DNA of 63,207 nt, the filler included, from Dugesia japonica (lineage: Eukaryota), in NCBI GenBank assembly GCA_001938525.1. It is 6 parts of 6 records of this genome, joined end to end, with 100 filler letters (N's around TTAATTAATTAA, not from the genome) between each part and the next. Parts side by side here need not be neighbours in the genome. Positions count along the whole stretch, not along the records: positions 10,817 to 21,743 come from MQRL01615993.1; 5 more parts are not named here. One strand, written 5' to 3'. Positions 6,381 through 54,304 of the stretch are shown here, in pieces (the stretch's first letter is position 1; every line of letters starts with the position of its first letter). The notes below the pieces were generated by a model. It made no database searches and had not been told where the DNA came from. It saw only the letters and a list, made by a program, of their open reading frames with translations. The translations under genes were made by a program, and so were the position numbers.

Positions 6381-6610
6381 CAGTCTATTAAGATTTTTGA
6401 AGCGAGATCTTTGAAAATATGAAGAGTACATATGCAATAAAACCAATTGAAAATAGAGAAAATATGGTTAAATAGTTTAAATATAGCTAAATATAGCTAT
6501 AAAATCATAGAAAAACCATAGAATCCGGTGGCTTTCGGTAGGAATATTAATCAAAAGGTATTGCCAGTGTTATAAACAACTTAATATTATTTATCTATTT
6601 TAAATAAAAA

Positions 6611-6874: not shown

Positions 6875-6899
6875 CTTAAAGAAATATCTAGTAAATTCA

Positions 6900-7330: not shown

Positions 7331-7520
7331 CTAACTTAATATTAGATTTTCTAAAACCTTTTGAAATAAATACTAAAACTAATTTTGATTTATATTGTAT
7401 TGCAGATTTTTTAAATTTAGATGTTGAAATTTTAATAAAAGATGAGATACCAGATGAGAAAGTCATTGGGTTGCTTTTTAATGTGGTTATTATTTTGATT
7501 CATATGGATTAAAACCTTTG
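7327..7520 (+). pseudogene. Adenain-like cysteine protease, internally deleted
   Basis: N-terminus nearly matches the 17674 ORF (TNFDLY.IADFL); HWVA and YFDSYG occur in shifted frames. Confidence 0.7.
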
Positions 7521-7599
7521 GATTAAATCCCAACGAGTCCCATAAAAATATTTATTTAAATATAAATAAATATATTTACAAAGATCATAAATATACTAT

Positions 7600-8150
7600 T
7601 CAAGATCTCAAGTCTAAATTATCAAATTTAAGAATAGTAGATTTTGAATCAGATTTATATTTATTGATGATAAAATTAATGATTATAAAAATTTTATAAA
7701 AGATGATCAAGGTTAGATACTTCAATAAGATTAACAGAAATATTTATTGGAACAATTGTTGGAATAACTGAAACTGTTTAAAATTTCTTTAGGAACTTTT
7801 GGAATAGGAACAAATTTAATTCCTATCATCTTAACTACAACAGTTTCTTGTATTCTTATAATCAGAACTTTAAATTCATCCTTAATTTAAATCAAAAAAT
7901 AAGAAATATCAAAAATTAATTCACGAATTAGAAACCGTTAAAATAAATTATTTTTATTTCAACAAAAAGCTTTATCTGATGATATACTAACTGATGATGA
8001 AATTTCTACAAGTAAAAATATGGTAAAAAAAATTAAAGAATTTATTTCACATGAAAATAAAAAAGATTTACAAGTTAAAATTGATATTTTAAAAAAACCT
8101 GAAAATCAAATTATTGAACAACAGAAAGTAATTGATAAATTAAAGAAATA
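7600..8150 (+). pseudogene. Decayed Maverick membrane-associated ORF (hydrophobic segment followed by KALSDDILTDDE)
   Basis: A hydrophobic stretch plus KALxDxxxxxxE resembles a recurrent Maverick/adintovirus ORF; many stops. Confidence 0.35.
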
Positions 8151-8349
8151 AATTTGTGGACCGCGGGGCACACTTTTTTATTTTTAGAGATTGCAATTTA
8201 TCGTCCTGCAGAATGACATTTTTATTTTTTAGATTTTTAATTTAAAATTTTAGAAATTGGTGACCGCGGTCACAATATTTTTTATTTTAGAGATTTTTAT
8301 TTTAATTTTAGAAAAAGTGAGCTCGCTTTCGCTTTGCTCACATTAAACC

Positions 8350-10716
8350 ACATTTTAATTTTTCTTTTAATTTATCCAACCTTAAATGCCATTGTGTATG
8401 GACTTTACAATAGAATTTATTTGTGGCCAAGTTCTTACACCGTTATCTTGAATTAATCTTTTATCCTCGTAACCAGTTAAAACTATTTTTTTGTTCAACC
8501 AATTCATCTTCCTGTTTAAGGGATTTTAAACTATGATTAGTTCCATAAATTATTTCTTTCTGATTATTTAAAACTTTATCATATTCTTTCATTCCTATTT
8601 TATTAATTTTTGAAACTCCTTTGTGTTTAGTTTCTATATTTTTGTTGCAATCTTCAATTATATTACTCTTTGCTTTTATAAAATTACATTTAGTTATTTC
8701 TGAATCTGGTTTCTCATCTTTCATTTTGAAATAATTCATTACCAAGTCAACTTTCAACTTTNGCTAAATTTTCTTGTCCAATTATTTCTACAAATACAGA
8801 GTCTGTATCACTATTATGAATTTGTATTTATTTGGAATTTTATTTTCTTACTGATTATAAATAAAATCATAAATTAATTTTGCATTTTCCAAAATAGTAA
8901 AACCTATATATCGAAATTTATTATATTTCAAATTGGTTTTTCTCATGTGCATAGCAGCTGACTCTGTTTCACCTGTTTCTTTATAACTAAATATTTCACT
9001 AGATCTGAAATTTATTTTTTATGCAAACTTCTGATAATCTCTATCTGTATCTATAATTTCTACATTGCATCTCTTTCTAATATTTTCTAAAGTTTTTCTA
9101 TAAAATGCATAAATCATTAATTTATAAATGTAATCACCAAAAACATTGCTATTTCTATTTGCTTTTCTATGAATTTTTTTTATTTTCATTCCTAAAGATT
9201 TTTATAAATCTAAAGTACTTCCTAGAATAATATAATTTTGTTTGTCAAATTGATTTAGAGTTAATTTAGGATTTTTCTTGCTCAACTTTTTCTGAAATGA
9301 TAATTGATAAAAAGCTAACATTTCTTCAGTTATATTAATTCTATCTGGTGCTAAAGGAAAGTATTTTGTCTTTTCATAAACTTCTGGTGGATATTCCAAA
9401 TCAACTTCATAAATATAATTCATTTTGTCTGTTGATTGAGTATAAGTTAAGTCTTTGTATTCTTAAGTTTCACCTGTTGGTAAAAGCTATGTCATACAAG
9501 ATGCATCTAATGAATTGTCATCTAAATATTTTATAAATGTATCTTCAAAATAATCAAGTGGAATTTCCTCATTTGAATTCATCATTTTTATTAAATCATC
9601 AAATTGGGCTTTATTTACTTGTTTAGTGTATGGATTTTTATTATTGTTATGGCTAAATACTTGTCTCTCACCACAAACATCTGAAAATCCACATCTAATT
9701 CCTTTTTCTATTTTTAATAAAATATCATAAGTTTCTTTTTTGCATATTTTAATTTTACATTTGCATAATTCATACCTGTTATCCAACTATATCCTGGTGC
9801 AGAATATAAATAACATGGATCTAATTGAAGTATATTATTTAAACATTTATCTCTAAAGTTTCCAAAAAATTTGCTAGAATAATTACATCTAATTTCATGT
9901 AATGTAACATGTATTCGAATAAATTATTAAAATTATTTCCACCTTTGGCTTGAGCTCCGCGAAAATCTTGTAAAAATTCATTATAATCTTGGTAAGTTAT
10001 TTTGTGTTGTTTTAATGTATTTAAAAAATCTTCTTTTGTTGGAATATTATTTGATTTTAATTAACTAATCACCTCATTTATATTTTTTCCTTTTACATAT
10101 TCACAAGGAAATGATATTCTCTTTGGTTCCAAATTAAAAAATTTCAAATGATTATATTTTTTAGATTGTAATAATAATTTACCCATTATTTCAATTGATA
10201 TAATAGAACCTAATCTTGCTGAATCTAAAAATTGAATATTTTCATATTGAAATTAAATGTAAACTTCTTCTGTATGAGAAATTATTTTTTTTAACTTTAC
10301 TTGATTATTTTGCTAATAATTCTTTGAAAAGAAAATTATTAAATGATGCATTGTGAAAGTAAAATGGAATAAATAAATACTTTATAGATTTATCTTGTAA
10401 ATTACACTTTGAATGAGCATAACCTCTAAATTCTCCATTGAAATGATCATGATCAATTACTGGATTTGCAGTTGAAATTATATTTTTTTCACAATATCTA
10501 CATTTATTTTGACTTTGAGCTTGCTCACCTTTTCTAAGATCAGGAACTTCACTCAAAAACCTTGTTATTAATTTATTTTCTTTTATATCCTTTAAGTTCA
10601 ATTTTTATAGAGTTGGTTACTTCAAATACATTTATTTTCCAGTCATTTAATTTTTTTAAAATTTTCAATATTTATTGGAAATTTAATTCCGTTTGTTTTA
10701 AATTCATTTAAATAAG
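8350..10716 (-). pseudogene. Polinton protein-primed family B DNA polymerase with EndoVII-like domain, intein-free
   Basis: CRYC...DHDHFNGEFRGYAHSKCNL (EndoVII-like), motif A YLDDNSL, motif B KLMIYAFYRKTLENIRKR, motif C IHNSDTDSVFVEI, C-terminal DKRLIQDNGVRTWP; several frameshifts and stops. Confidence 0.92.
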
Positions 10717-10816: not shown

Positions 10817-11719
10817 AACTCAAGTGTTAATTTTTATGGAACCAAATAACAAAATAGAAGATTCTGAGGAAACTACTTACAGAGGACATTTGCATAACTT
10901 ATTTTGAGTGGTGGACAGTGATACATCTTGGCTATGCTGAATTTTGAATAGTAGAAATAGATGTTGTTCAAATATAAATGAGATAAAAGACATTATTGAT
11001 GTGTTTAGGTAATCTTCAAAGGTAATCCTGAAATATAATATTTCAATAATAAAACAAAACCCTTTGACCTTAATTTTAAATTTACAAAGTTAAATTAGGT
11101 ATCATTCTATGTATATATACATTCAGAATAAATATTTGCATATTTTGTAACTAAGTCTTTCGGGGAACAACTTATGATTCATAGCTTCATATTGTTAATC
11201 TCATTTCACATTTAATACTCTTAATTTTAGAGTCTAAACTCTACCAGACAATCAAATAAACACAGAAAACTTTGCCACTCATTGGGTTGCCAGTTAACAT
11301 TGCTCCAATGTACTGCTAATTTTTTAGCAAAAAAAAATTGGCACAGTGGAAAANNNNNNNNNNNNNNNNNNNNNNNNNNNNNNNNNNNNNNNNNNNNNNN
11401 NNNNNNNNNNNNNNNNNNGCACTATCTACCTACTGAAGTAGATTAGAAAACTGTAAATATTTATATATAGAAATTTAAATCAGGTCTAGTAATAATCAAT
11501 ATCGTTTTTAATGTTAAAGATGATCGATTAAATAAAAGATTTTCTTATTAACTAAAATTGTGAATAAAGAAAAAATTTAAGTGTTAAAATACATTTTTGT
11601 TTAAGTTATTATAATACGACCTCTAGATAATGGTGCATGAAATGCATGTTAGACATTATTTACTATATGAATTTCAGTTGGAAAGAAAATCAGTGGATGC
11701 AGCTAAATTTATTTGCTAT

Positions 11720-12430
11720 GCACTTGGTAAAGACGTTAGCAATCGTAAATGCCAAGAAAAAGATATATATGTCCATAATAGATAAATTTAGCAGATACAT
11801 ATGCTTAACAGCCCTAGTTAAACAAGATGAGGAATCAATAAAGAAAACGATTATGGATAAATGGATACTAAAATTCGGTGCTCCAAAAGAGATACATGAA
11901 TATTGTAGAAAGGTCTGCGAATCGAAAGCCTTCAAAGAAATGACAGATTCAATGAATATAACGATTTGCTTTTCAAGTCCCTATCATCATAATAAAAACG
12001 GAATAGTTGAACGTCAATTCAGAATGATCAAAGATTATATCAATGCAACATTAAAAGATAAAAAAATAAAAATTAGGCAGTGTTAATACCAGAAATAGAA
12101 TATACTCTAAATGCAACAAGCCAGAAGACTTTGGGCATATGTCCAGCAGAAGTGATATTCGGTAAGAAGATACATAGAGNACGATGGTTCAATAATGGAG
12201 AAAAGAAGGAAGAATCTGAATAGTTGACACCAACAAACAGTCGTTTTCAAGTTGGAGACGAGGTGCTAATCAAGGCAAAAACCCGATCAAAAGACAAAGA
12301 AAAGACATACATGTCTGTATGAGGTGATAAAACATATTTATGAAAGACGATACCTGCTGAAGAGTTCAGAAGGCAAGATGATTGAAAGAAATGTGGAAAA
12401 AATTAAAAAATGTTTAAAGAGGGGGATGTA
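11720..12430 (+). mobile_element. Ty3/Gypsy integrase fragment with polypurine tract and start of 3' LTR
   Basis: IIDKFSRY...WILKFGAPKEIH...SSPYHHNKNGIVERQFR; PPT AAAGAGGGGGA followed by TGTAAG at 12427. Confidence 0.9.
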
Positions 12431-12913
12431 AGATGATTCATGAATTTCGCATGTCTGAGATTTTTGAATTTTTCTATATAATATTAAAATTGGTTTTTTA
12501 AAACTTTTAAAATATAAAACACGTTTTTTTAAAATGCAAACTATTTGAATAAATTCTTTATATTATATTATGCAAAATTATGAAATTATAAAAATTATTT
12601 TGTGAAATTATGTTTAAAAATAATTAAATATATTTGTAAAAAAATGTTATTTCAAAATTAAAGTCGATATTTTATATAATGTTGAATTATAAAATTATAA
12701 AAATTATTTTATAAAATTAGGTTTAAAAATAATTAAAGATACAGGTAAAATAAATAAAAGTATTTTGGAATTTAAAAAATCAATATTTTTGAAAAATATT
12801 TTAGTAAAATTTCTCAGATTATTTGTTTGAAAATTGTGAATTGTTAATTGTTTTCATTTTAATAAAAGACTTGTAATAATCAATTAAAAATTTTTGGAGA
12901 TTTTGAATTTAAC

Positions 12914-12962
<49 letters not shown>
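12914..12962. repeat. (AAT)n microsatellite
   Basis: Direct inspection. Confidence 0.95.
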
Positions 12963-14587
12963 CAATGATTGTATTTATCATAATTAATTACCATATTTAC
13001 GAAATAAAATGTAAGATAATATTTCTATTATTTTTCACAACTTTAGAGTAAGTATTTATACTTAATTTTACAATTTTTTGTAATATTTTGACAAAGTTAA
13101 AACTCAAAATACTAAAAAAATGGAAAAAATTAAATATCAACTATATAAAATAGATATACAAAATATTCTCATTACATAACTAGTAAAAAAATCCAATTTA
13201 ATCGATTTACATTTAGATATTCAATATATTATCGATCTTTGTTTAAATGTATNTACTATATATGAATAATGATTATTGAAACAAAATATCAAACTAAGTA
13301 ATATTATTAGGCAAACAATTTAAACATTTTTCAGAGTGAGAGTAATACTTTCTTGTTTTATTTATTTATTTTTAATTAATAATTTATAATAGAATGAAAA
13401 ATTTATTCATTATTCTGAACATCTTTAATGGATTCATTGTTTAAATAAAAAAGATTATTTTCAATTGAAATTATTTAAAATAACTTTCCAAAAAACATCA
13501 ACGTAAATTATTTTAATTTTACTTTAAATAATAAATTAAAATCTGCATTCAATTTTTAGAATTTATATTGTACTGAGCAGAAATTATATAATTGGACATA
13601 AGTCATCCATTACGGAAATTTTCAAAAGTCAATAAACATTAATTATACTTATGCTTTTATTAACAATACGATTAGTATGAATTACTTAATTTAGTGTTCT
13701 CGTAAAAAATGAAATATATTAGAAAAATCAAAACAAATAATCATATCTTTATTTCGAGTAATTTTTAATTACCTAAAATAGTAAATAAAAATTTGTTAAA
13801 ATATGGTCTGAAGTAATTTTTTTTAGAAGTATTAAAATGAACTGTTTTTCTGTTTTAATGGATAGATATTTGGATAAAATAATCTTTATTGGAAAACAAA
13901 ATCAATTTAATATAGATTTTTACAATTTTAATTATTGCGAGAATAATTTTTGAACTTAANNNNNNNNNNNNNNNNNNNNNNNNNNNNNGTCGATCAAAAT
14001 GTTGTTTTTTTTATACTTAGTTGTTTTTAATATTGATATAGATTTTGTAATTTATTTTAAGTTAATCTTAATCAATAAAATTTGTTGGATTATTTTATTA
14101 TTGTACCGATAATAATATGATCAATGTACTGAAAATAATGATCGTTGAAATAATAATTCAATAAATTGGTTTTCACAGCGGAATTATATAACGATACCAA
14201 CTATACAGTTCCCGTGACTCACTAAGTACCCAAAAAAAGCTGGCTGCAAAGAAACTCAAAGAATAGAAAAATATCGGAATAAATAAAGGTTAAATCTATA
14301 TTAAATAAGAAATCAAGTAAAAAAGAAAATGAAAATATATTTATTTACGATAAAACAAAGTAAAGATCAAACCATTATAATAAAAACAATATAAAAAGTT
14401 GGTTATACGGGAAAAAAGAAATACAATACAATTCGTTTAATATTACATTTAGTCGATGCAATTTATTTATCTATCGACTTCTATGGAATTTCATGGAATA
14501 TTTAGTTATGTCTATACAATTTCTATAAATTATATGATACTTCTATGTAAAACAAATCTAAACTGTTCTCGTGAGCACTTATCCATC

Positions 14588-14590
<3 letters not shown>

Positions 14591-14627
<37 letters not shown>
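14591..14627. repeat. (TA)n microsatellite
   Basis: Direct inspection. Confidence 0.95.
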
Positions 14628-14634
<7 letters not shown>

Positions 14635-15557
14635 ATTATAATTATCATTACAAAATAATACAATTCTCTATTATTAGAATTCAATTCTTACAATGTCCAT
14701 CAGTCATTGGTTAGTCTTATGATCTTTATCTTATTATTTTCGATATAAAATAAAATTTTTATTTATTATAAATATGTATTTATGCTTGTAACGATTGCTA
14801 GAGATTCTGTTATAACTCCTTAGAGTTTAGATATCTTTAAAATGTTTCTTTTTAATAAATGTACTACTACTGTTTAACGATCAATATTAATAAATCTATG
14901 TAAAAATATTTTTAATAAATTTATTAAATTAAAAGATTCAATTAAAATGTTGTTTCTTTTATATTTTTTATAATTTTTTAGTTGTGGTTAATATTTCAAA
15001 TTTTCGACTTTATAGTCGAACTTAAAACAATATTTTGATCGAATCTTGTAATTTAATGGAATTTCAAATGCAATCAATGTTTAAGTCAAACAATTATTCT
15101 CTCAATAATTGTAATTGTAAAACGTTTAGTAAATTTAATCTAAATATTAATAAAAAAAAACTGAGAACTTTGAATTAATGAAAAGCATTAAATATAAATT
15201 TTTAAATTTATAATACTAAGTTATACTTCTAGTTTTGTTATGTAAATTTCTTATTGAAATAATTCACCGATTATTAATAATTAACAATAAGAGTTTATTT
15301 AATGAAACAATACTAAAATAACTTTTTATAGATACATATATTTACCTTAACATATGAAGCTATTCAATTAAAACTGTGTTTATCTTATTTATCAAGCAAA
15401 AATATATCATAAAATCTATTTTATCCAGCCCAATTGTTTCTAAATGATCTTTTATAATTAATAAGCAATTTGAAATATTATAATAATATTTCAATATATA
15501 TAAGTAGTGGGAAAAAGACGAATATAATTCAAGGGGGTATGCTAGCCTAACATGTAA

Positions 15558-15800
15558 AAATTTGACACTTTACATTTTTTATGAAAAAATTTTACATTAA
15601 AAAGTGTTTTCCTAAAGACATTATTTTTTTATTTTTAATGTCACAAATATCAAATTTTCACAATGAAAAAGTTTTCTTCAAAAACTTTGTCATCAAAGAA
15701 AATTTGATATGTGACATTAAAATTAAAAAATAATATCAAACAAAACACTTTATTTAAAGTAACAAAAATTTTTTCATAAAAAATCTAAAGTGTCAAAAAT
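15558..15800. repeat. ~240-bp imperfect palindrome near the element end
   Basis: Arm pairs tttgacactttacattttttatgaaaaa / ttttcataaaaaatctaaagtgtcaaa and ttaatgtcacaaatatcaaattttc / gaaaatttgatatgtgacattaa; centre aaagtttt-cttca-aaaacttt. Confidence 0.85.
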
Positions 15801-15969
15801 GCGCGAGTGAAATCTAAACATGTCAAATTAAAAATATCCTTTTCGCGCAAAAAAAATGTGCGAGACTTTTAAGAGGAAACATGAAAGAGGAATAATATAA
15901 AATGTAAAATGTTAAATGGAAAATCTAACTCCTTTTAGTGGGTGTATGATTAAATTATTTCTTTAGAAA

Positions 15970-16530
15970 ATGAGTGCTATAATAAGATGTGAAAACTGTG
16001 GAAAGGTGTTTAAGAATTTAGGAGGTAAAATGGGACATGCAAGATCTCGAACTTGTAATAGAAATGAAATAGTATTTCAATGTGAAAAATGTCGTTGAAC
16101 ATTTAGAACAGAAAATGGTTTACGAGAACATTTAAATTCATCAGTTTGTGGAAATTCAATTAATGTACCATTAAAATGTGAGATTTGTAATAAAACATTT
16201 ACAAGACAAAATCTNNNNNNNNNNNNNNNNNNNNNNNNNNNNNNNNNNNNNNNNNNNNNNNNNNTTTTATTTAGAGAATTACCACAAGAAGAAGCAATTG
16301 ATTATAATCCAGAAATTAGAGATATTTTTAGAATGTACAAAGATTATGAAATTGAATATTTTAAAGAAAGTAAAGTGGTAATGAGAAAAAATGTGGAACC
16401 AATTATTAGAGATATTAAAACATTTCAAAATCAAGTTAAAGAAATTATTACAAAGTATTTTAGATATGGAAAAAAGATTTTTATAAGTATGCCAGTAAAA
16501 TGTAGATATACAAAAGATATAAAAAAATTC
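15970..16530 (+). pseudogene. Truncated ORF with tandem zinc fingers, probably a pPolB N-terminus
   Basis: MSAIIRCENCGKVFKNLGGKMGH...FQCEKCR*TFRTENGLREHL...LKCEICNKTFTRQN. Polinton pPolBs often begin with C2H2-type fingers. Confidence 0.6.
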
Positions 16531-17228
16531 AATTCAATTCTATCAATATATATTTTATGTTGTCTTGATGTTACTCTTTCAATTTCTTCAGTTAATTTAA
16601 AAATTATAGGTTTAAATTTTTCTATATCTAATTTAATTTTATCAATATAAGCCATATGATTGTCAAAAGTTTTCTTATTTAAATCTTTATGTAAAATCTT
16701 AATTTTAGTGTATAATATTTCAATTTCTTTTTTAATTTTTTTAGGTAAATCATCATCAACTAATCTTTTAAAATTAATTAATAAATCACTTCTTTTAAAT
16801 GGAAAACCTTCTAACCTAATTGTTTTAATCTCAGAATCTATTTTATCAAATGTTTCTTGATTACACTTCTTTGTTAAATTTTTAATTTTCTCATTTATAC
16901 TTTTAACATTAACATTCAAATCTTATAATTCATCAGCCTTAGATTGTAAATAAAGTTTGTTAGATGTAAAATTATCAATCTTTAATATTTTAATAAAAAT
17001 TAATTCATGTTTTTCTATTTTATTTTCTAATTGTTTAATGTATTGTAAATTAACTGCATCATGTAAATCTTTAGGCTCTTCTGTTATTTTTAAACATGTT
17101 ATTGTGTCACCTGTTTCATCTACAAATTTATTTTCATTTGTTGCATCTGACATTCTAATTTTAGCATCAACATGTTTTAATACTTGTGAATTATTTACAT
17201 TGAATATACTTTCTCCAAACTTATTCAT
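16431..17228 (-). pseudogene. Fibre-like/coiled-coil Maverick protein (two in-frame ORFs split by one TAA)
   Basis: MNKFG start; FVDETGDTIT...EPKDLHDAVNLQY resembles a tail-fibre-type motif; ORFs 16923-17228 and 16431-16919 share a frame. Confidence 0.5.
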
Positions 17229-17674
17229 TGTCCTTTTATTAATCTTAAATTATCATATAAAATTTTCATCTCTGAAATTATTTCATCAAATTTGACATGA
17301 GACATTTTATATAAATAATAAATACACAAGATACCACAAATTTTAGTATCAAAATGTTGAACTTGAATTTTATTTTATTTCGTGGTGACTCTTGCGAGTC
17401 TTTCTAAAGATTTTAAACCAAAAGAGTCAAAATAGACTGCTTTGGTTTGTGCTTTGCCGTAATAACCGTTGGTGTAACAAACCCAATGTGTTCCTTTTTG
17501 ATTTGTATTTTGATAATTAAAAATATAATTTTTTCTGGAACCCTGAAAGATTCCTGGTATTTCATTTTTCAAATAAATTTCTAAATCCATTTGTAAAAAG
17601 TCTGCAATTGAATATAAATCAAAATTTGTTGTTGTGTTAATTCCAAATGTTTTCAAGAAATCAATCAATGACAT
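17225..17674 (-). pseudogene. Adenain-like (adenovirus-type) cysteine protease
   Basis: GTHWVCY...YFDSFG; after one in-frame TAA, QVQHFDTKICGILC supplies the oxyanion Gln and catalytic Cys. Confidence 0.9.
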
Positions 17675-17709
17675 TTTCTTAAATCTAAAAAATGGGTCAC
17701 GCCGTGGCT

Positions 17710-18460
17710 CTATAATTGATATTTTCTTAAATGAACTAAAATAGAAATCATCTCTTGGTTAAAATCAATTCTGTTAAAATTTTCATCCACAATGTTAAAT
17801 TTTATAATATCAATATATTTTGTATTAATTTTAGAATAAATTGTTACAGATGGTCTTTCAAGAATTTTAAATCCAAAAAGAACTGTGTTAATTGGAAATG
17901 AATACAATAAATTTATTTGTTTGGTATTTCCTTCTGGAGATTTTACATAATTACCTTTAACAATATTACAAGTTATATTTATCATGTTAATAAGTGTAAT
18001 GTAAAATTCTTTTTCTGAATAATTTTTTCCTGTTTGATAAGGTTTTACTTCAAAACCTAACATTTTATGAAAAAAAGATTTATCATCAAAAGTTAAAATG
18101 TTTTCTGTTTTCATATTACATTTTGTGGTTGAAGTGTCGGGCAAAACTTCTATTCCATATTTTTCTAATTTATTTGATATTTATTTTATTTCATATGCAC
18201 CAGGTTCAATTTTATTTTCTCCATGTTCAATTTTAATTTTCTTTGCAACAGGTTCAATTTTATTTGCAACAGGTACAATTTTATTTGCAACAGGTACATG
18301 TTAAATTTATTATTTAAATCTGTTATGTTAAAAATAATATTGTAACATGTAAAACAAATTAATCCAAGTTCATACTCTAAATCTAATTCTATAGGAAATT
18401 TTAAATCTAATTTTAAATCCTGTTCTTTTCCAACTACTAAGAATTGATGTGATATTCTTT
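17710..18460 (-). pseudogene. Polinton minor capsid (penton-like) protein
   Basis: N-terminus LKFPIELDLEYELGLICFTCYNIIFNI..NNKF..IEPGAYEI; C-terminus ITCNIVKGNY..LLYSFP..IKFNIVDENFNRIDFNQEMISILVHLR. Confidence 0.8.
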
Positions 18461-18549
18461 TCTTAAGAGAAATATTTAGATTTATATTTTTTATAAATCT
18501 TATCAGATATTAAACCCTTCACCTTTAATTTTTTACATATTGTTTTAAT

Positions 18550-19473
18550 TTATTCATGTAAATTATGATGTCCTGATTTTGCTGCTGAAATTAATAATGT
18601 TAACTTTTCAAATAAACCTATTATTCCTTTTCCTTCAGCTTTGTTTTTTGGTCTACCTATTTTAGATTTTAATATTTCTCTTAAAAATTTACAGTATTCA
18701 TCATCAATAGTTTCTTTTACCATTTTTAAATAAATCTCAATAAAATATTTTATTGTTTTATTTTTCTTTATATTCCCTTTATTTCCTAAAATTATATGCA
18801 CTAAAATAACATTATACGCATGAGTTTCTTCACCGATAACAAAATATTTAAGATTTCCCCTTTTATATAAAAATAACTCTTCATCATTTCCTGAAAATTT
18901 TATTGTTATGAATTTTTTATCAGGTTCTCCTTTAGTAGCAACATTTGTAAAAAATATTTTTGGTGTTGNNNNNNNNNNNNNNNNNNNNNNNNNNNNNNNN
19001 NNNNNNNNNNNNNNNNNNTCAGGTTCTCCTTTAGTAGCAACATTTGTAAAAAATATTTTTGGTGTTGTTAATTCTGTTAATGCATTTTCATTTATTTTTA
19101 AATCATCCTTGAAAGAAATTGGTTGTATTTCATCTTTCCTTAATATTTCAATTTTTTTATCTTCATCTTTAATAGGTTCATCTTTAATTTTTTCAATTTC
19201 CTTTTGAATAGGATCATTAAAAACGGTTGGAATATTTGAAGTAAATGTTGGTTTAATTTGATTTTGATTTTGGCTTCGGGTTAATGCCGAAATTAATGGT
19301 TGTTGTAAAATTGATAATTCACTTTGTAAGTTTCTTGTTTGAATATTATTTTTACAGAAAAAATTATTATATTCTTCTTGAGCCGCAATTTGTTTTCTTA
19401 TTTCTATAATTCTTTTTTCAACTTGTTTCGTATTCATCTTCTTCTTCTTCTTCAGTATCTTCTTCTTCTTCAC
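18550..19473 (-). CDS. Maverick conserved core-like protein
   Basis: C-terminal GKGIIGLFEKLTLLISAAKSGHHNLHE matches the recurrent Maverick (R/K)LxLLxxxxxAG(N/H) motif; contains an assembly gap with duplicated flanks. Confidence 0.55.
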   Translation of the reverse strand: MKKKKILKKKKKMNTKQVEKRIIEIRKQIAAQEEYNNFFCKNNIQTRNLQSELSILQQPLISALTRSQNQNQIKPTFTSNIPTVFNDPIQKEIEKIKDEPIKDEDKKIEILRKDEIQPISFKDDLKINENALTELTTPKIFFTNVATKGEPXXXXXXXXXXXXXXXXXXTPKIFFTNVATKGEPDKKFITIKFSGNDEELFLYKRGNLKYFVIGEETHAYNVILVHIILGNKGNIKKNKTIKYFIEIYLKMVKETIDDEYCKFLREILKSKIGRPKNKAEGKGIIGLFEKLTLLISAAKSGHHNLHE

Positions 19474-19499
19474 TATTTTCTATATAATTATTTTGACTT

Positions 19500-19945
19500 A
19501 CTCCTTTCCAAGGGTTTAAATATAAACCTTTTCCTTTGTGAACTACACGAATTCCTTCTTTAAATTTTTTTGTTACACCTTTTAATTTAGGATTAATATT
19601 TTTTAAATATTTATGAATTGCAGAACCTTGCCATGGATTTAAATATAAAACTTCTCCTTTGTTTTCAAGTTATTCGGTTTCTTTTTGTGTTTTAATTGCT
19701 TCTCTAGAACTTGCCACGGTTGATGCAACTCCAGATGCAATGCTTGCAGCTCCAGATAATGCTCCAATAATTTCAGGAATTGCAGCAAGAAATGCAAATC
19801 CTCCCTCTTTTGGTTGCTTTTTAATTTCATCTTTTACTTTTTTACTAATATAATAATTTTTACCATCAATCTTTACAGATTTACATTTCTTTGAATTTAT
19901 TATCTTTTCTAATTCTTCTTCTGTTGGATTCGTTGCACTCGTCAT
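19500..19945 (-). pseudogene. pX/Mu-like adenain substrate with amphipathic helix
   Basis: EGGFAFLAAIPEIIGALSGAASIASGVASTV resembles adenovirus pX (GGFLPALIPIIAAAIGA); continues past a stop into GEVLYLNPW. Confidence 0.7.
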
Positions 19946-19948
19946 TTT

Positions 19949-21743
19949 CTATATTAAAAATATACATGTTAATGTTTTATTTATTAAGTGCAATCTTAAA
20001 TGCCAAATTTGACAATTTTCACATTCAAACTTATTTCCATGTGGCCAGGTTTTTGCAGCATTATCTTCAATAATTCTTTTATCATCATATCCCATTAATG
20101 CAATCTTTTTTTGTTTTACAATTTCAATTTCGTGTAAGTTGGATGTTAAAGAATAATTTGTTCCATAAATTATTTTACTAGGATTTTTTAAAACTTCATC
20201 AAAATCTTTCATTAATAATTTATTATTTCTTTTAACACCTTTATTTCTTAAATCAAATATTGTTTGATTTCTGTCAATATTACCCAGAGGGACCCATGAA
20301 TATCCATAAGAATTTGCTTTTATAAAATCTCCTTGAATTATTTCAGATTCAGGAATTTCATCTTTCATCTGAAATGATTCATTTCCTAGTAAGCTTTCTA
20401 ATTTTATTAAATTATCTCTACCTTTTATCTCTATAAAGATACAATCGGTATTTTTTATAATTAATGGAAATTCACAATTAAATGATCCATCTTCGGTTTC
20501 AATATCATAAACATCTTCAATGCCTTTTCTTAAGAATCTAACTGTTTGCACATTAGTTGAAATTTCTGATTTTGTTTGCATTGCACTAAAACAATTTGGT
20601 TTATCTTTTCTTTCTGAAACAACTAAATTAATTCCTAAAGATGTTGTTAAATAATACAACTGTGTAAAAAATTCTTTTCCTTTTTGTGTAAAACCAATTG
20701 TTTTATAACTATTTTTTCCATTGAAACTTTTAGTTCCATCTGCTGCATAAAATCATGTAAAGAATCAACATCTAACATCAAATGATGCATTTAAAATATA
20801 TTCAGGAATTTATTTAGTTCTTTCAAATTCATTATAATAATTTTTAGAATAATACTTTGCATGTTTTATAGGATTTTGTAAATGAAGTTTATAAACATGC
20901 GATGATTTCATTGTATCGTATATCATTGTTTCTTTATTATAAACTTCTTTATGAAAGCTTTTTATTTTATTTAATAAATATAAATCTTGATTATTAAATG
21001 TACAACAATATCTTACTCCTGATTTATAATTATAAATTCCTGCTGATCCATTTCCAAGAAAGAAACCATCTATAAAAGCCGCCTTTAATTTTAAATCATT
21101 AGGTTCATTCTCATAAATATCAGATAAAATTTTATAAACATTTATTTCATTATTTGCTTCAAATAATTTATTGTGAAGTAATTTCGTTTCATTTGTTAAA
21201 TCTGTTGGTTTTGATTTGTTCACCTTTATCATTTAATAATGAATGATCTTGTGTTACATCTACAATTCCCATTTTAGTTCTTACTCTNTAAATCTTTTTA
21301 TTTGTNGTNTGNTTAATTACTTTATTTAATTTNACCCANTTACTTTTNGTCCATATTTCATAATTCTCTGGATAAGAATAATATTTTCCATCAAAGTTTT
21401 TTGTATAAGATTGATCTATTTCTGAAATCTTTTTTATTTAAACTTTATTATTTTTTCGTAGTATTATTGGAGTGTCAGATGTTACACTATCTGAATAATG
21501 AATTTTATAATTATTTTATCCAATTAAAGGTTGCATTTGTTCATATATAAAATTATACATTACTTGTTTTGCATGTTCAAGTATTGTGAATCTTATATAA
21601 GGAAATTTATTATATTTTAATTTTCCTTTTACCATATGCATTGCTGCAACATTGGCTTCGTTATTATCGTTTGTTGTGAAGATTTTACTTGATTTAAAAT
21701 TTATTTTAGATGCGAACTTTTGATAATCTCTGTCATTATCTAC
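19949..21743 (-). pseudogene. Polinton protein-primed PolB C-terminal half interrupted by an intein
   Basis: N-extein ..AAMHMVKGKLKYNKFPYIRFTILEHAK..KIHYSD; C-extein TDCIFIEIKG...KKIALMGYDDKRIIEDNAAKTWPHG. Highly similar to the pPolB at 8350-9100. Confidence 0.93.
20450..21488 (-). mobile_element. Intein with LAGLIDADG homing endonuclease (~346 aa) in PolB motif C
   Basis: Block A SVTSDTPIILR, block B GIVDVTQDHSLL, block C DGFFLGNGS, block E FYAADG, block F VYDIETEDGSF, block G IIKN|T. This copy has one +1 frameshift near 21210 and four stops. Confidence 0.93.
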
Positions 21744-22807
21744 NNNNNNNNNNNNNNNNNNNNNNNNNNNNNNNNNNNNNNNNNNNNTTAATTAATTAAN
21801 NNNNNNNNNNNNNNNNNNNNNNNNNNNNNNNNNNNNNNNNNNNGATGAAGTAATGCCTGACACAAGTACAAATACGGATATGATTGATGAGGAAATGATT
21901 GATTTACACTCTTTATGTAAAGTTCTCTATCAGATAGTAAATTGCATTGATTATAAAAATGTTAACTTTCTGTCTATAATAAGATGTGTACTTTTCATGT
22001 TTTTTGACCAAACCATAAGATATTATTTGATAATGTAAATTAATAAATAGTAGGTTTGTACGGGATAAATAAAACAAAAAACTCAGATTTACTCGGAGTT
22101 TCAATTTTAAAGGTCAGTTTTTGACATTTTTTTCTATTTAAAAGAGAACTATGAGAAATAGAGCAATGAAGTAATTATAGTAAATGTTTGTCTTAAAGAT
22201 TCCAATTGATACATGCATCATGATGATCGACTAAATGGATTGCTAAAATTAATTCTTTTGCCGGTCCTCTTTCCTTTGCCTGGTAATGACACTAACTTCT
22301 ATATGGTCACTTGTTCGATTTTGTATTTCAAAATTAGACATTATCAAAGTTTATTAAAATTAAATAAATCAATAATGTTTAAACAAATATGTTTAAATAT
22401 TATATCTAACAATATTTAAATATATTTCCTAGATAGGTTGGTCATTTTAAAAATTACATTTTTATAGTAAATTAATTATTAATCCAGAAAATGAGGATAA
22501 TAAATGTTTCTTTCGGTGTTCGTTAAAATCTTTTGAAACGATGGCATATATTTAATAAATCATTTCAAACATCATTTTAAAATAGATTTTATTACTTCAT
22601 GTTTTGACAGATTAGATTTCATTGTCAGTCAAAATTTTTAATCGAAATATAGAGCTTATTAAAGTACTAATAATATAATCAATTGCATTATCTCGTTAAC
22701 AAATCAAATTAATTTAAAATATTTAATAAAGATTTTTATGGATGCACTGCATATTTGACTTGGTAATCAAAACGTTTGTCTATTTTTCAAATTTGAGTTG
22801 TTCACCC

Positions 22808-23908
22808 TAAAATTGAATGCAAAGAGATTACTCAAGTACTCATAGACCAAGCAATAACAAGAGATATATCAGGGAGACATAGAATTTGCCCATATCCAAA
22901 ATTTAAGTTCAAGGAAAAGATAATAAATCTGGACGAACACAAAGAATTACTCTATACGTCATATTATGTGTGAAAAGTGTAAAGCACTAATATTTAAGCT
23001 TGACAATGAAGAAAACTTTAGAGAATCAATTCCCATGACATAAGTAGTATTTTAAAATTGTAACCGATTAATTCATTTGAACCCCGGGAAAATACAAATA
23101 TATCAAGAACTCATAGTCAAATGACCTAAGAGTTAGTAAAAGTGAGTATCCGTAGATTAGCATGCAATGAAAAACTCAATTAATGTTCATACCTATGTAA
23201 ATTCAAAGGAACCCGGATGTAAGTAAATGAACATATGTTCGACAAAGTAAAGAAATATGCAGGCTGTCACTTCCAATTTAGAACAGAGAATGGACCAACT
23301 GGAAGAAAATCTAAAGAATTATACTATCCAATTGATAAACGACTTATGCATAAAAATTCACAAAACAGAAAACAAATTATGGAGAGCTTTTAAAGAGAAA
23401 CCACATCAAACAACCCTATCTATGCCTACAACTACCCCAGATATCAAGTACTCGGTATTTCCTTACATATTATAAGTAGAAGTGTTTGCAGCCAAACTCG
23501 CTATTGCAAGTAATTACCAGACGAAAAGGATGGGCGTTGTACCAGCCCACCATTCAACTTATTTAAAGAAGGTTATATTGCGTCTCTCAGATTTTATCCT
23601 CATGAGGATGGGGCAGGAAACGGAAATTACCCAAGTGTTTTTTTTATAATCAGAAAAGGAAAATATTAGGATAAACTAAAATGGCCCATGTCAAACAATT
23701 TCAATATTAGAATAATCCCGGGATACAACAAAGGGTCTGAGGGACACGAAGAAACATTTAAAGGAAAATAAAACAAGATCTCCTATTAGAAACCTACATC
23801 TGATATGAACTTGGCTCAGGATGCTCAACATTCCTACAAATTAAAAAGCTGCTATCAGACTTCGTACAAAATGTTAGCATATTCATTGAGATAAGAAAAG
23901 CGAATTAG
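22808..23908 (+). pseudogene. Intronless TRAF-like pseudogene (zinc-finger remnants, coiled coil, MATH domain)
   Basis: MATH: SPPFNLFKEGYIASLRFYPHEDGAGNGNYPSVFFIIRKGKY*DKLKWP...KPTSDMNLA..FVQNVSIFIEI. Upstream DQAITRDI..ICPYP and CKFKGTR..NEHM; coiled coil at 23257-23400. Confidence 0.8.
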
Positions 23909-24839
23909 ATAAGTTTAATAGATGAGTAAATAGAGTTGTAAATTGTAAAAATTAAAAAAGTTTTAAAAATACAATGACTGTAAAAGTAGTAAATATCGAA
24001 TAAAAATACCAAATATATATATATATATAACGAAAATGAAGTTGCAAATGAAGTTACTAATTGCAAATTTGTGCTAAGTAACCTCGTTATCCGGAAGATA
24101 AAAGAAATTAGAGTCGAGATTCGAGAATCGACTAGAGATGAAATCTAATAAATTTAAATTGCTTTTAAGAAATTATTAAACACATCAACAAAACGGTATA
24201 ATGATCTAGCTAATATCAAATTATTAAACAAATTAAATGAATTATCAAAGAAGAATTAAGCGAGTTAATAGTTAGAGTTGTCAAACGCAAATAATTAATC
24301 GAATTAATAATTGATAATATATTGTTAAGCAAATCCATAATCAAATAAAGTGTCGAATTATTAAACGAGTTTACACTTTACCAAATCATGAAACTATGAA
24401 TCGACAAGGTATTATAATGATAATCAGTTTATCATTACTATTGATATAAATTATTAAGCGAACTAATAATGTTNNNNNNNNNNNNNNNNNNNNNNNNNNN
24501 NNNNNNNNNNNNNNNNTAATCGATTTAATAATTATTCATAATAAATAATCATAACAAATGATAATCTCTTTATCATTTAGTTGCAGAAATTATCAAACAA
24601 TGAATTCGTGCTATGAGAACAGGCAAGACGAAATAAATTATATGCAGAAGAGCCCTTACGAGAAGAGAGCTTAAAAAGAACCTCTTGTAGTAAAATACAA
24701 CACCATAGAGATTAAACAATCAAACAGTCTGGCCCAGAAGTGAAAATTAGAGTAAGTAACTACAAAAACCAGAAATTATTTATTAATAAAGATAATAAAT
24801 GATCAAAGAAACCAGATAGAAGACAAAAAATCAAAGCAA

Positions 24840-30231: not shown

Positions 30232-31921
30232 TCAATTCAAATCAGATGTTAAAATTTCCAAATTTTTCGGAGCGGGTTTAATAATGATATCAAAGTGTTT
30301 TGCTAACGCTTTCAAAGCATCCATNNNNNNNNNNNNNNNNNNNNNNNNNNNNNNNNNNNNNNNNNNNNNNNNNNNNNNNNNNNNNNNNNNNNNNNNNNNN
30401 NNNNNNTTATTGATAAATTTCTTATTGTTCAAATCGACCGGCACATCATAATTAATAACAAGATTCACTGTGTGCACATCAATACCTCTTGCCCAAACAT
30501 CTGTACAGATCAATACTCGAGTTTCCATTGATCGGAATTGTTGCATTAATCGTTCTCTTTCTTTTTGTTCGATTTTCCCATGAACACACGAAACAGTGAA
30601 TCCGTCACCACGCATTTTCTCAGTTAACCAATCAACTTTCTGTCGAGTATTAACAAATATAATCGTCTGATGAATTGTATTGTTTGCATAAAGATCTGAT
30701 AATGTACTGAATTTGTTTTCTTCATTTTGAACATTAATATAATATTGCTTCAATGTTTTCACTGATAAATCTTTGTTTTTAACTAATATTTTTACGGCAT
30801 CAGTTTGGAAATTTTCAGTTAAATCCAAACAAGCTTTCGGTAATGTAGCACTGACTATGACTACTTGGATTGCTTGAGAAATTCGACGGTATATTGCTTC
30901 CAATTGTTGATTTAAACCTTGTGCCATCATTTCATCGGCTTCGTCGATTATTAGCATAGTCAAATGTTCAGTATTCAAATGACCATGTTTAATCATATCT
31001 GAATATGAAAATATACAAAAGTAAAATTTACCATATCANNNNNNNNNNNNNNNNNNNNNNNNNNNNNNNCTTATTTATCAAGATTAATTTAACAGTAAAA
31101 TATTTATTAATTAAAAATGGGAAATCAATATATTAATTCATGTCAAATTTATTATACTACTTTTATACATAAATAGACTATGTATAATACTTGATTTATT
31201 ATGAAAAAAATTTTTAAATGTCATGAAAATTACAAAATGAATATAGTTAAAAATTTCATATATTGCGAATATTTTAAGAAATATTGGGTATTAAAATCTT
31301 AATTAAACTCAATCAATAAAAAGTATGTGACATTATAACAATTTCAGAACAAAGATTAGCATACCAATAACTCGCCCCGGAGTTCCTACTACTACATGTT
31401 GACCTTCTTTTAATTTTTTTGTTAAAAGTCCAACTTCTTTCCCGGTAGTTCCACCATAACAAGCCGTTCCTTTTACATTCATAAAGTCACTAAGAGAATC
31501 AAAAACTGTACATATTTGTTGTGCTAATTCTCGAGTTGGAGCTAAAACNAAGGCTTGTGTATGCGGTGCATCAGATTTATTGGATAAATCCAGGCTTTGT
31601 AATATACCAATACAAAATGTTGCGGTTTTACCTGATCCTGATTTTGCTCTACATTATGTTAACAAACCACCAATTAATTAAACTCTTACTGAATTACTAC
31701 ATCATCACCGTCAATTATTGGCATAATTCCTTTTTGTTGAATGGGAGATGGATCGATAAAACCTGTTAAAAAAATTATTTCGTTAGATGTTTAAAGCAAA
31801 GCAAACCATGGTTTGTAATGCCTTTTAGTAATTCAGGTAATAATCCCATTGACTTGAATGTGGAATAACTTTTAATGTTATCTTGCTTATTAATAACTGA
31901 TTTCTTTTTAACATTGTTCAT
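30232..31921 (-). CDS. eIF4A3: eIF4A-family DEAD-box RNA helicase, most like eIF4AIII; exons 31921-31807, 31762-31690, 31648-31365, 30998-30232
   Basis: Q motif, [50 protein letters not shown] introns of 44 and 41 bp restore the frame; motif VI falls in a gap. Paralog assignment rests on the VWARG signature. Confidence 0.85.
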
Positions 31922-50492: not shown

Positions 50493-51489
50493 TATAGTAG
50501 TTGAAAAAATAATCATAAATTTCATAGAAGTCTATAATTCCTTCAAAATCATATTTTAGAAAGTAAATCTAAAAATGACTAGAAGTCACTACATATTTTA
50601 TTAAATTGGATAGAAGTCATAAATTAATTTATGAAATTATATAAAAGTATCAAAACATTTTTTTGAAATTTACATGATGTATTAATACGCAATTTGTTGC
50701 ATTACATACATAGTATGTGTACAATACACGTGTTAAAATCGGGCAATATGAATTCTACTGNCATGACATTCTTATATTATTCAAGGAACAGATTACATAG
50801 AAGTTATTGATTTATTGTTAAATAGGTATGAATTTTCACATCTTTGTCACCAATTTTCACATCTTAATGTAAAAATTGGAAATTTATACACAAGATGTGA
50901 AAATTCACACTTTTTAAATAAAAAATTACCTTAGGTGCTAAATTTCACACTTCAATTGACCTCAAATTATTTTCTTTGTTTGAATTAACAATAAAAAATT
51001 TTACACATTATGTATTTTATAAAAAATTAAAAGCGATGCGCATTAGGCATTTAAGAAATTCAAAAAAGTTTATTTTACTGTTTGAATTGACATGATAAAC
51101 TTATTTAACATAATTTTTATGTGAATTTTCAGACCTCATTGTAAACAATGATTTTATTTATCGACATGTAAATTTTCTCAAATTATTTATTATTATTATA
51201 ATTATTATTATTATAACTATTATTATTATTATTACTATTATTAATATTATAAAAACCTTATTATTAAAAAACATTATTATTACTATTCTTTTAACAATAA
51301 AATAGAAATTCAATAAATAAAATACAAGTCTTTAGAAATATTTATTTCAATCATAATAAAAAAAACATATTTCATTGTCAAATAGGCTTTCCTTCTCTGT
51401 AACAATCTAAATGCAGTAATGGAATTGGTTGACATCGAAACAAAATAACGATTATTTATTTGATCATGGCCATAGGCCATACTCTTATT

Positions 51490-52300
51490 TTTTCCTTCCA
51501 AAAGAGCTTATCGTCCATATATTATAACGCGTATTTCTTAGTTTCTATTGTATAAGTCTGATGATTAAGTGACCTGAATNNNNNNNNNNNNNNNNNNNNN
51601 NNTTCTTCTGCGTCGGTATAGACGACCAAATAGTCATCATGGCGAATATAAGTTTGTTTCAAACCAACTCTTATAGCCTGCATAGTTGTGCTGCCATCTT
51701 CCTTATTCATGCTTTAGCATTTAGGTCTTAAAAATACCCATTTCAGATAATCTTTTCCTTGACCCTCATTTTTAAATGACCCCATTTTGTTGGTTACATT
51801 ACTAGAGTATAATGGGTGATCCTTTGAAAAGTTTCTTATATTCAGCAGACCATTAAACTTAATTTCTCTCAAGAGTNCGTCTTTGTCCACTCCAGTGCAT
51901 GACAAGAAAATGCTATCTGTGTCACCTGTAATATGGATTTTACAACCAAATTGATTTCGATATTTTCCAACTCTTCACTGTAACTTGTACATGCGTAGCT
52001 TGGTAAGATCCAGCATCGTCTGTCTAATGTAACTTGNCCTATCAAGACATATACAATCCTTCTTCACTGCTTGATAATAATTACTTTTGGTATAATTCTT
52101 CCAACTGATCTTCCGCTATAAACTCAAAGTCTCTATATGTTAAAGGCTGTTTTAAGGCCGAACCGTATAGATTATTTATATCGATATATAGCAGTGAGGT
52201 ATTCTCATCTACCCGAACGTAATGTGTATTTACAAATGTCATGCCACCTCTAATTCCTGATAAAAATAACCGATGCATTCCTGGGTCCTGTAGAGTAGGT
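51490..52300 (-). pseudogene. Third Polinton pPolB fragment (divergent family), intein-free, motif B region deleted
   Basis: SGIRGGMTFV, motif A YIDINNLYG, motif C ITGDTDSIF, DHPLYSS..MGSFKNE, FLRPKC, FRSLNHQTYTIETKKYAL..DDK. Confidence 0.88.
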
Positions 52301-54304
52301 AGATATATCCCCCCCGATGAGTCACAGCCCCACCCATTTTTAGCCTCGCCCACTTTTCTTTGGCCATGCTCACTTTTTTAGGCCACGCACAATTTTTTTT
52401 GACTACATCTTTTTGAAAAAAAAATTTTTTTAAAATTTTTTTTCAATTTTGTTTTAAATTTTTTAAAACTTTTTTATTTGATGAGTAATACTTTTTGTTT
52501 GAACAAGGACCTCCTACCCACTACCCAAACTCTCTAACCCCTTCCTCCAGACATTTAGAATTTTTTTTGATGAGTGATACTTTTTTTTGAAAAGACATCA
52601 TAAAATCGAAAATCATCTATACATAACCTAAAAGACTTAAAGGCAAAAATGCTTTCTTTATATAGAAAAGTGAAGTACAATAGAGTAGTTATGTCAGCAG
52701 TAAACCACCTAAAATCACCACTTTTAAAATAAAGACTAAATCAAGTACATACACGCTATGATGACAACCTTGGTATTGTTGAACATAACTGCTATCTCGA
52801 AATTTTAATCTGATGTATTGGTGTCGAGTTATTAAATTTTTGAAATGTTAATTTTTAAAAAGCGCGCACAGACTCAAATTTGATACTATCAAATAGAGAA
52901 TTAAAGTCTACCTATACATTGTCTTAAAGATAAGTATGATAAAATGCATACGAGAAAATCAAATAAGAAAGAACAAAGGACTTTTAAAATTTTTATATAG
53001 GAACCTGTAAAGATACAACAATCTATGTATAGTGTGTTGATATCCGATATCGGTTCCAAAGACATGAATACATTGAATTTATTAGTACAAAGAATTGAAC
53101 CAACGATTACAATTAAGGATACAGTTTTCATCAATTACAATGAATTAAAATTGATTGTATTCGAAAATTCCCAACAATATATGATCCAGGTGGAAATACA
53201 AGGATTCAAGAAAAATGGAGACAACATTAACTCAATTAATACAAAAGTTATTATAATAAATGTTATTTATTTATTTGACTTTTTTTTAATTAACTATATA
53301 TAAATCACAATATTTATAAAGATTGAGAAAAGCATTCAGCAGACCAATCTCAAGAATGAGAGATATCCAAGAAATGATGGCTTACGAAANNNNNNNNNNN
53401 NNNNNNNNNNNNNNNNNNNNNNNNNNNNNNNNNTTAATTAATTAANNNNNNNNNNNNNNNNNNNNNNNNNNNNNNNNNNNNNNNNNNNNAAATTAAAGTA
53501 GGTTAGGTGAATGTGGTGTGTGTGTAAGAGGAAAATTAGACTCGAGGGAGGTGTGGAGATCTTGGGTTTTTATTTTTTGTAGATTTTATGATATAGACGT
53601 GTTGGAATGAAATTACTGTCTATACATTGACTAAAAAACTTATGAAGTAGAATGGATGGTTTGGTCTACAAGGGGTGGTGGTGCACTAGCACAGCGTATT
53701 GAATCTTTTAAGTGGTATAGGGTTGTTGGAAGTTAATGGATTTTGGTGGGTGATGGCTGGTTGAAAAGGTGATGTGATGGGGAGTATGATGGTGTAGGGG
53801 TGGTAGTGAGTTGAAAAATATTTGTTTGATAATTTGATTGGTTAATTTGTTTAAGCAGTATAATGAAATTAAAAATGTTTTCCTTCAGAGGAAACTGGTA
53901 TGGGTGTAAAGGTAATTAATCATTGTTGATTTTAAGATTTAAATAAATTTTTGTTTTCTGTGGGGTGTGGGTGGCGTAATAATGTTTAGAAAAAGGTTGA
54001 TTTTTAAAAAAATTTTGAATCCATTGAAAATGATGTTTTATGAAAAATATATTTTTGAGCAGATTTGATATTTATGTATGGGATTACTGATAGCGTTTTT
54101 AAACAACGAAAAAAGCCGGCTGTGATTAAAATGAGGAAAGAATCATAAAAAAATCAAATAAGAAGCAATCACATAAGAAAAAATTTGAAAATAAGACAAA
54201 GCAATTAAGTATGTTTAAAAAACTGGCAAAAAGTACAGGAAATAAAATAAAAAATGACAAACGGAAAATGGATATCATTATAAACAATTAACGGGTATAT
54301 CTTT

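Follow-up and report, generated by a model that had tools for sequence, protein, structure and literature searches.

The window, i.e., the whole stretch of 63,207 nucleotides that was analysed, is made up of six short scaffolds with five identical artificial linkers between them; it has a G+C content of 26% and contains 1,444 Ns. It is a draft of a repeat-rich eukaryotic genome, and two of its 50-N gaps are flanked by 47-49 duplicated bases, a feature that we take to be typical of ABySS-family drafts. The intein that is the subject of this work was found on the second scaffold (10817-21743), whose end falls inside a polymerase gene. On the remaining scaffolds there are LTR retroelements, a fragment of a mariner element, a helicase like eIF4A and an exon with a kringle domain (Table 1). 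The host is likely an animal; the kringle exon is the best hint in this direction, together with the mariner and LTR elements and a penton-like gene that is close to mollusc and nematode clusters. The imperfect palindrome and the dispersed inverted repeat pairs are probably small transposons.

The exteins of the interrupted gene match, among the fetched proteins, Polinton-type polymerases only, and the Pfam family PF03175 was detected on the relatives P0004 and P0186. The small genes directly behind the polymerase showed no Pfam match; presumably they resemble Polinton core or membrane-active virion proteins. Further along the scaffold, the likely minor capsid gene gave Atlas matches to clusters from Mollusca, Nematoda and Preplasmiviricota (0.98) and to the Sputnik minor capsid protein V18/19 (0.93), with a recognition score below threshold. 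The gene that follows had no Pfam match to any protease family; from its motifs we assume that it encodes an adenain-like protease, and it is related to the gene located behind the polymerase in the metagenome loci L032 and L039 (E 2e-10 and 3e-08, respectively). A six-frame Pfam scan of 10817-19950 revealed no assignable major capsid protein, packaging ATPase or Polinton integrase on this scaffold, which is truncated in the polymerase; likewise, no terminal repeats were found on it, and one end of the element lies beyond the scaffold end. An integrase at 11637-12086, approx. 4 kb away and on the other strand, resembles the retroelement integrase at 38456-39085. As a whole, the neighbouring genes fit a Polinton, with the penton-like gene as a lead.

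Two other polymerase copies are present in the window. The paralogue on the first scaffold carries an empty site, S-D/T-D-S, between 8807 and 8806, and therefore the boundaries of the intein are fixed. The third copy is apparently intein-free as well, since a tblastn search with the intein-free protein P0056 crosses its site without a gap (E 3e-06). These two copies belong to decayed Polinton fragments on other scaffolds (6856-10560 and 51474-52332), where an integrase was also seen (54827-55249). Scaffold 1 has its penton-like and protease genes facing the polymerase, an arrangement opposite to that of scaffold 2.

Table 1. Features of the window, with positions counted along the whole stretch
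Feature	Position	Strand	Remarks
Inverted repeat pairs, dispersed	6245-6395/49747-49897 and 5830-6015/50199-50381		
Intein-free paralogous Polinton polymerase, first scaffold	8350..10560	-	68-71% nucleotide identity to both exteins; endonuclease VII insert; broken
Imperfect palindrome, 237 bp	15561-15797		
Adenain-like cysteine protease gene (presumed)	17375..17650	-	G-T-H-W and F-D-S-F-G motifs
Likely minor capsid (penton) gene	17710..18180	-	Atlas recognition score below threshold; a lead
Small genes directly behind the polymerase	19418-19948	-	G-G-F start to Ala/Gly/Ser-rich helix; repeated L-Y-L-N-P-W motifs
C-extein of the Polinton polymerase, from T-D	19952..20449	-	Open to its end
Intein, broken	20450..21488	-	1039 nt (346 codons plus one base); Ser first, T-x-x-H, two-motif LAGLIDADG core, Lys-Asn end, then Thr
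LAGLIDADG-like endonuclease domain, second motif region	20546..20773	-	Pfam PF14528, E 6.5e-08, 33.2 bits versus cut-off 22.5
Breaks in the intein	20753..21440	-	Stops 21438-21440, 20810-20812, 20765-20767, 20753-20755; frameshift near 21209-21213
Seven single-N ambiguities, all at codon position 3	21288..21348	-	Conserved N-terminal splicing region of the intein
N-extein, protein-primed polymerase to Y-S-D of motif C	21489..21743	-	Cut by scaffold end; one stop, 21516-21518
Artificial linker	21744..21843	.	44 N, 12-base stop palindrome, 44 N; ends the intein-bearing scaffold
Divergent eIF4A-like DEAD-box helicase	30232-31653	-	At least two open stretches; closest match 79% identical
Kringle domain of plasminogen type, apparently a single exon	48911-49186	-	Pfam E 1e-07, slightly below cut-off; PDB matches of plasminogen type
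Third Polinton polymerase fragment, apparently intein-free	51474..52332	-	PF03175, E 5.6e-04

The intein in polymerase motif C

The insertion site is located between Y-S-D and T-D of polymerase motif C. The residues expected for splicing are recognizable, i.e., S as the first residue, T-Q-D-H in block B, K-N at the end and T at +1; the usual penultimate His is replaced by Lys, both here and in many giant-virus-type relatives. No Pfam match was obtained for the N-terminal piece of the window intein, and the Hint fold was detected in its relatives: P0186 passes the Pfam model Intein_splicing (37.7 versus 35.8 bits), and the unbroken relative P0070 folds with a mean pLDDT of 88 and matches endonuclease-bearing inteins of the PDB, with a best E of 3.6e-16. 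The pol-c junction pattern (Y-x-D / T-D-S) is present in 166 of the 294 fetched proteins, and filled and empty relatives differ by exactly 346 residues. Judged by its sequence, this appears to be a real intein of the class 1 type with a LAGLIDADG endonuclease, belonging to the pol-c allele, for which splicing and cleavage are predicted. The earlier note was concerned with the Ns and gave too little weight to the intein itself, the part of this stretch that is out of the ordinary.

The copy in the window is dead, i.e., an intein pseudogene. There is one stop in the N-extein, and four more in the intein, plus a frameshift, leave no open frame through the latter; the endonuclease domain is broken by stops, and its first LAGLIDADG motif departs from the form seen in the relatives. 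An alternative genetic code was considered as an explanation for the stops and rejected: both TAA and TGA occur, there is a frameshift in addition, other copies have different letters at these sites, and the standard code gives open host-type frames of 196 and 106 residues.

Abundance of related copies, the seven ambiguous bases and past selection

The seven single Ns of the intein were found where the earlier note had placed them (21288, 21306, 21309, 21312, 21333, 21339 and 21348), and on the minus strand each is the third base of its codon (ACN, AAN, GTN, AAN, CAN, ACN and TAN). The frame was fixed independently by tblastn, in which five of six related polymerases assign position 3 to all seven; therefore the probability of 1/2187 that had been given, (1/3)^7, is the right figure under random, independent errors. 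The Ns are also strongly clustered, given that 7 of the 19 single Ns of the window fall in 61 bp, compared with a maximum of three among 20,000 random placements. Since they are spaced by 3-21 bp, they probably stem from one event and not from seven. The clustering, the phase, and the fact that the adjoining bins are among the deepest in related contigs (see below) leave hardly any room for the idea that the Ns are low-quality bases or random errors that share a phase by chance, even though single Ns elsewhere in coding-like frames also occupy positions other than 3. Three such Ns lie in Polinton polymerase frames, at 8762 (position 3), 51877 (position 2) and 52037 (position 1), from which it follows that the third-position bias is local.

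How far the Ns represent silent differences depends on the codon. Three of the seven codons are four-fold degenerate, and the other four (K/N twice, H/Q and Y/stop) are silent for transitions only. The proposal that the merged copies differ mainly at silent sites thus stands for three codons, where silence is certain, and it is certain for none of the four split-box codons.

The abundance of related copies was followed in public sequencing runs. Seven runs from three studies share 0.32-0.36 of the words of the stretch; five further runs with the same species label contain next to none of them and are uninformative either way. In four runs, contigs were compared at an 80% cut-off with 19950-21287, which adjoins the Ns without including them, and 2,931, 4,391, 4,362 and 4,317 contigs of all likeness grades were aligned, most of them 90-95% or under 90% alike. 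Summed contig depth was 15,000-24,000 at both splice ends, a value that comes from another sample than the window and is not a copy number; the same reading applies to the 14,600-19,000 of the adjoining extein bin and to the conserved extein bins, which reach up to 49,660. Among the contigs listed, most single ones had a depth of 4-26. These data show a very large Polinton family in which a large share of the copies have at least the intein ends. Over the endonuclease core (20535-21209) the summed depth was approx. 500-8,000 versus the figure at the splice ends, so that mini-inteins may make up most of the copies, or else the divergence of the core exceeds what the 80% cut-off admits; among the rows listed for the four runs no joint across the core was found, and smaller deletions inside the core were listed. 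The letter of the window was absent at 20755 and 20769, where all depth in the four runs carries another letter. Because of this, and because the runs share only 0.34-0.36 of the words, the exact window copy is probably absent from the four runs sampled, and the depth therefore belongs to another sample and gives no copy number.

The collapse of several copies during assembly, which had been suggested from the Ns, is well supported by the thousands of related contigs seen in each of the four runs. When ABySS-family assemblers merge alternative paths, the result is written with ambiguity codes (PMC4515008). Given so many related contigs on the neighbouring stretch, the Ns are most likely one assembly bubble between diverged copies, and the duplicated bases at the 50-N gaps would fit a draft of that kind. 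A different origin would be that the Ns represent two alleles of one heterozygous locus, one of which acquired a short tract by gene conversion with a related copy; the historical cause discussed below would then account for the third-position bias as well. The presence of seven differences in 61 bp, with no N for approx. 390 bp above or 8 kb below, would agree with a short tract, and related donors are plentiful. Nevertheless, with thousands of related contigs, shared words flanking a conserved block arise easily without conversion, and we consider two such alleles improbable. Overall, it seems quite probable to us that the Ns mark one bubble between two diverged, high-copy Polinton copies, and that this bubble lies within a broken intein at polymerase motif C with predicted splicing and likely homing when unbroken.

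What the phase of the Ns says about selection was evaluated with the best 40 of 264 differences, 37 of them with depth in run X1. Position 3 accounts for 20 of the 40. At sites that vary among copies it accounts for 12 of 18, and position 2 for 0 of 18 (P 0.004); at sites where the window copy is nearly alone it accounts for 7 of 19 (P 0.46). For the local codons and a dN/dS of 0.05-0.2, the expected probability of seven out of seven at position 3 is 0.03-0.32. The observed phase is thus unremarkable under ordinary selection, and it is what copies that had diverged under selection prior to their insertion would normally show. Since the differences between lineages are biased and the private changes are not, the Ns are no sign of current selection; purifying selection, which had been read from them, holds as history and not as a present condition. 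The pattern is a record of past selection on active elements and not of a living copy: the lineages of the two merged paths probably diverged while active and under selection, and the window copy would have decayed neutrally afterwards.

It could also be argued that the Ns reveal an intact second copy under present selection, either an active element or a gene adopted by the host. At the three stop sites sampled (20812, 20765 and 20755), most or all depth in the four runs carries another letter, so the stops are not common to most of the depth, and unbroken full-length relatives exist elsewhere, as in 7 of the 15 listed members of the P0186 cluster. On the other hand, a third-position bias lasts in dead copies, none of the contigs listed spans the stretch, and no RNA run is among the matching runs of the search, which was of the DNA kind. 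An intact, selected copy as the source of the Ns is therefore very improbable in our opinion, even if an intact copy may exist in this organism, and the pattern of the Ns alone is of little weight, being the assembly signature of repeated DNA.

Relatives and probable spread of the intein

Protein searches revealed the same intein in other Polinton-type polymerases and in many giant-virus-type PolBs, and an Atlas search with P0007 produced only matches below 0.9, to viral and archaeal PolB-intein clusters. Closely related inteins were also seen at D/T-D-like sites of ADP-ribosylglycohydrolase, thymidylate synthase and topoisomerase II (P0085, P0087, P0005 and P0012); homing into unrelated genes is possible in these cases.

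An intein tree was obtained from the endonuclease and C-terminal part of 65 rows (18 Polinton-type, 45 best PolB and 2 others), with three near-copies and rows of less than 200 aligned residues left out; it is a quick tree without bootstrap, and the label "Polinton-type" was assigned from extein similarity and Pfam content. All 18 Polinton inteins fall on one side of a branch with respect to these 45 best PolB rows (SH-aLRT 100), the window intein pairs with that of P0004 (SH-aLRT 99), and the sister branch includes a PolB named Mimiviridae sp. ChoanoV1 (P0242). The window and P0004 are 54-65% identical in the intein (52-56% by BLAST) and 28-29% in the exteins. P0004 is likewise distant from the other Polinton-type rows, with 21-24% identity over 300 N-extein residues versus 41-49% in the intein, and it had no match to the first-scaffold paralogue, which the other five queries do match. 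Homing is thus suggested, since the intein nearest to that of the window resides in a Polinton polymerase of a very different kind. For other Polinton pairs the identities of intein (45-77%) and extein (39-86%) are alike, as vertical descent would give. A C-extein tree of 158 columns, with long branches, did not reject the pairing of the window with P0004 (p-AU 0.449), and therefore transfer between polymerase classes rests on the identities. The C-extein tree comprises 37 rows, 15 filled and 22 empty; the filled polymerases are dispersed among the empty ones, with 8 changes, and a single filled clade is rejected (p-AU 7.7e-05). Such a scatter may result from gains as well as from repeated losses.

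Metagenomes provided a further view of how frequent the intein is. No loci were found by single-protein locus searches, and an alignment search gave 57 loci plus one giant-virus contig. Among the loci that span the site, 47 of 48 are empty, which makes the intein infrequent overall; of the 57 loci, L002 alone has a Polinton polymerase with the intein (3070-4089), and this one contains two stops.

Filled and empty alleles coexist within 90% clusters, with N-exteins that are 98-99% identical. The P0186 cluster has 136 members (contigs of up to 1 Mb), and the 15 members listed comprise 7 full-length filled, 4 empty and 4 fragments. Of the 150 C-extein residues, filled copies have just 1-5 that are unlike P0186. 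Three of the empty alleles, with 10-18 differences in 1,041 N-extein residues in total, share changes relative to P0186 at -6, -5, -3 and -1, as well as nine more between +3 and +44. In the empty alleles P0303, P0304, P0305 and P0307 a tract from about -6 to +44 surrounds the site and the rest is approx. 99% alike; after the site three of the empty alleles of this cluster read T-D-A and one reads C-D-S. As far as can be judged from sequence, a tract of this kind would fit co-conversion or targets resistant to cleavage. The empty member P0056 of the P0007 cluster (121 members) lacks such a tract. P0064, filed under the genome of a bacterial symbiont from a clam, appears to be host DNA.

From these comparisons, a single entry of the intein into Polintons is likely, with a PolB intein of giant-virus type at the same site as its source; thereafter it would have been inherited, lost and sometimes moved between Polinton lineages. 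Since the insertion splits the catalytic Y-x-D-T-D, an active element would need splicing to replicate, and the splicing domain would be kept under selection; cleavage of polymerase genes that lack the intein would be the role of the LAGLIDADG domain, after which repair would copy the intein into them. Splicing, homing and the direction of origin are what established intein biology, the trees and the identities would lead one to expect.

The history of the intein, as distinct from the origin of the Ns, could also be explained by an ancient intein of the Polinton polymerase that was inherited vertically and lost often, with little or no recent homing. For most rows the subgroups of the inteins parallel those of the exteins, the identities of intein and extein are similar within the endonuclease VII class, and P0056 is empty with no changes around its site, as a precise loss would give. 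Nevertheless, the scatter of intein-bearing polymerases among empty ones and the rejection of one filled clade speak against it, the empty metagenome loci would demand very many exact losses, and both the contrast between the N-exteins and the inteins of P0004 and the local tract of differences in the P0186 cluster are at odds with purely vertical descent, which we regard as rather unlikely. One entry followed by descent, loss and some transfer is the history that we favour.

Comparison with known systems and significance

The closest known counterpart is the pol-c intein of the Mimivirus (APMV) PolB, for which the sections consulted of PMC549080 describe the same motif C site (YGD/TDS there versus YSD/TD here) and 351 codons versus the 346 of the window. 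Both inteins begin with Ser, end with Asn before Thr, have Thr and His in N3, and carry a LAGLIDADG core. In contrast with Mimivirus, the host gene in the window is a protein-primed Polinton polymerase and not an RNA-primed giant-virus PolB; the chromosomal copies are very many, the Polinton inteins are on a branch of their own, and the window copy is broken. Among solved structures, the best sequence match to the N-terminal piece is the split PolB intein of Nanoarchaeum equitans (PDB 5oxx, E 0.0013), in an alignment that crosses the same Y-x-D/S junction; unlike the window intein, that one is archaeal, naturally split, and has no endonuclease.

The surrounding genes have their counterpart in adintoviruses and Polintons (PMC8502044, main text and one supplement), in which small genes likewise come after a protein-primed polymerase, and to whose penton and adenain genes the presumed capsid and protease genes of the window would correspond; decayed copies in a eukaryotic genome are a further point of likeness. 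That text, which contains no mention of an intein, defines Alpha and Beta classes and describes the virion proteins as restricted to animals. The polymerase of the window looks like members of the class, likely Beta, whose PF03175 scores are weak and which carry an endonuclease VII insert, and P0004 scores strongly for PF03175 and is likely Alpha, both labels being derived from these features.

Endonuclease domains inside Polinton polymerases have been reported before, in the form of HNH and VSR inserts in pPolB (10.1101/2023.08.22.554363), and it was suggested in 2024 that these came from intein invasions (PMC11161782). In the portions of both sources that were consulted, the inserts sit elsewhere in the polymerase and come with no described splicing domain; the window intein differs in having a complete splicing domain plus LAGLIDADG within the catalytic motif, and in the existence of exact empty alleles. 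Inteins are also found in endogenous giant-virus polymerases of two algae and one labyrinthulomycete (PMC10710043), which, like the window, place intein-bearing viral DNA polymerases on eukaryotic nuclear scaffolds; the hosts there are not animals, and the words Polinton and Maverick are absent from that text and two of its supplements. A survey of eukaryotic inteins, as far as consulted, counted zero in Metazoa and presented this as an argument for developing intein inhibitors into antimicrobials (PMC5784728). No description of a splicing-domain intein in a Polinton polymerase was found in the literature covered, with subscription journals, Repbase, InBase and bioRxiv supplements outside the search, and term searches of the accessible text of PMC5718144, PMC12220804, PMC3671162, PMC13768754 and PMC13215967 gave nothing further.

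Polinton polymerases are likely a new host class for a known intein allele, in what is likely an animal genome and with signs of homing. The more specific proposal, that a giant-virus pol-c intein jumped into Polintons and has been homing in animal genomes across both deep polymerase classes at very high copy number, is put forward tentatively, at somewhat less than an even chance. If it is true, there would be true inteins in animal chromosomes, and the replication of Polintons there would depend on protein splicing. A clade of Polinton inteins with filled and empty alleles would show exchange of DNA between giant viruses and Polintons in shared cells, and would serve as a marker for recombination between Polinton lineages; moreover, it would offer a multi-copy system in which the invasion, resistance and decay of an intein could be counted.
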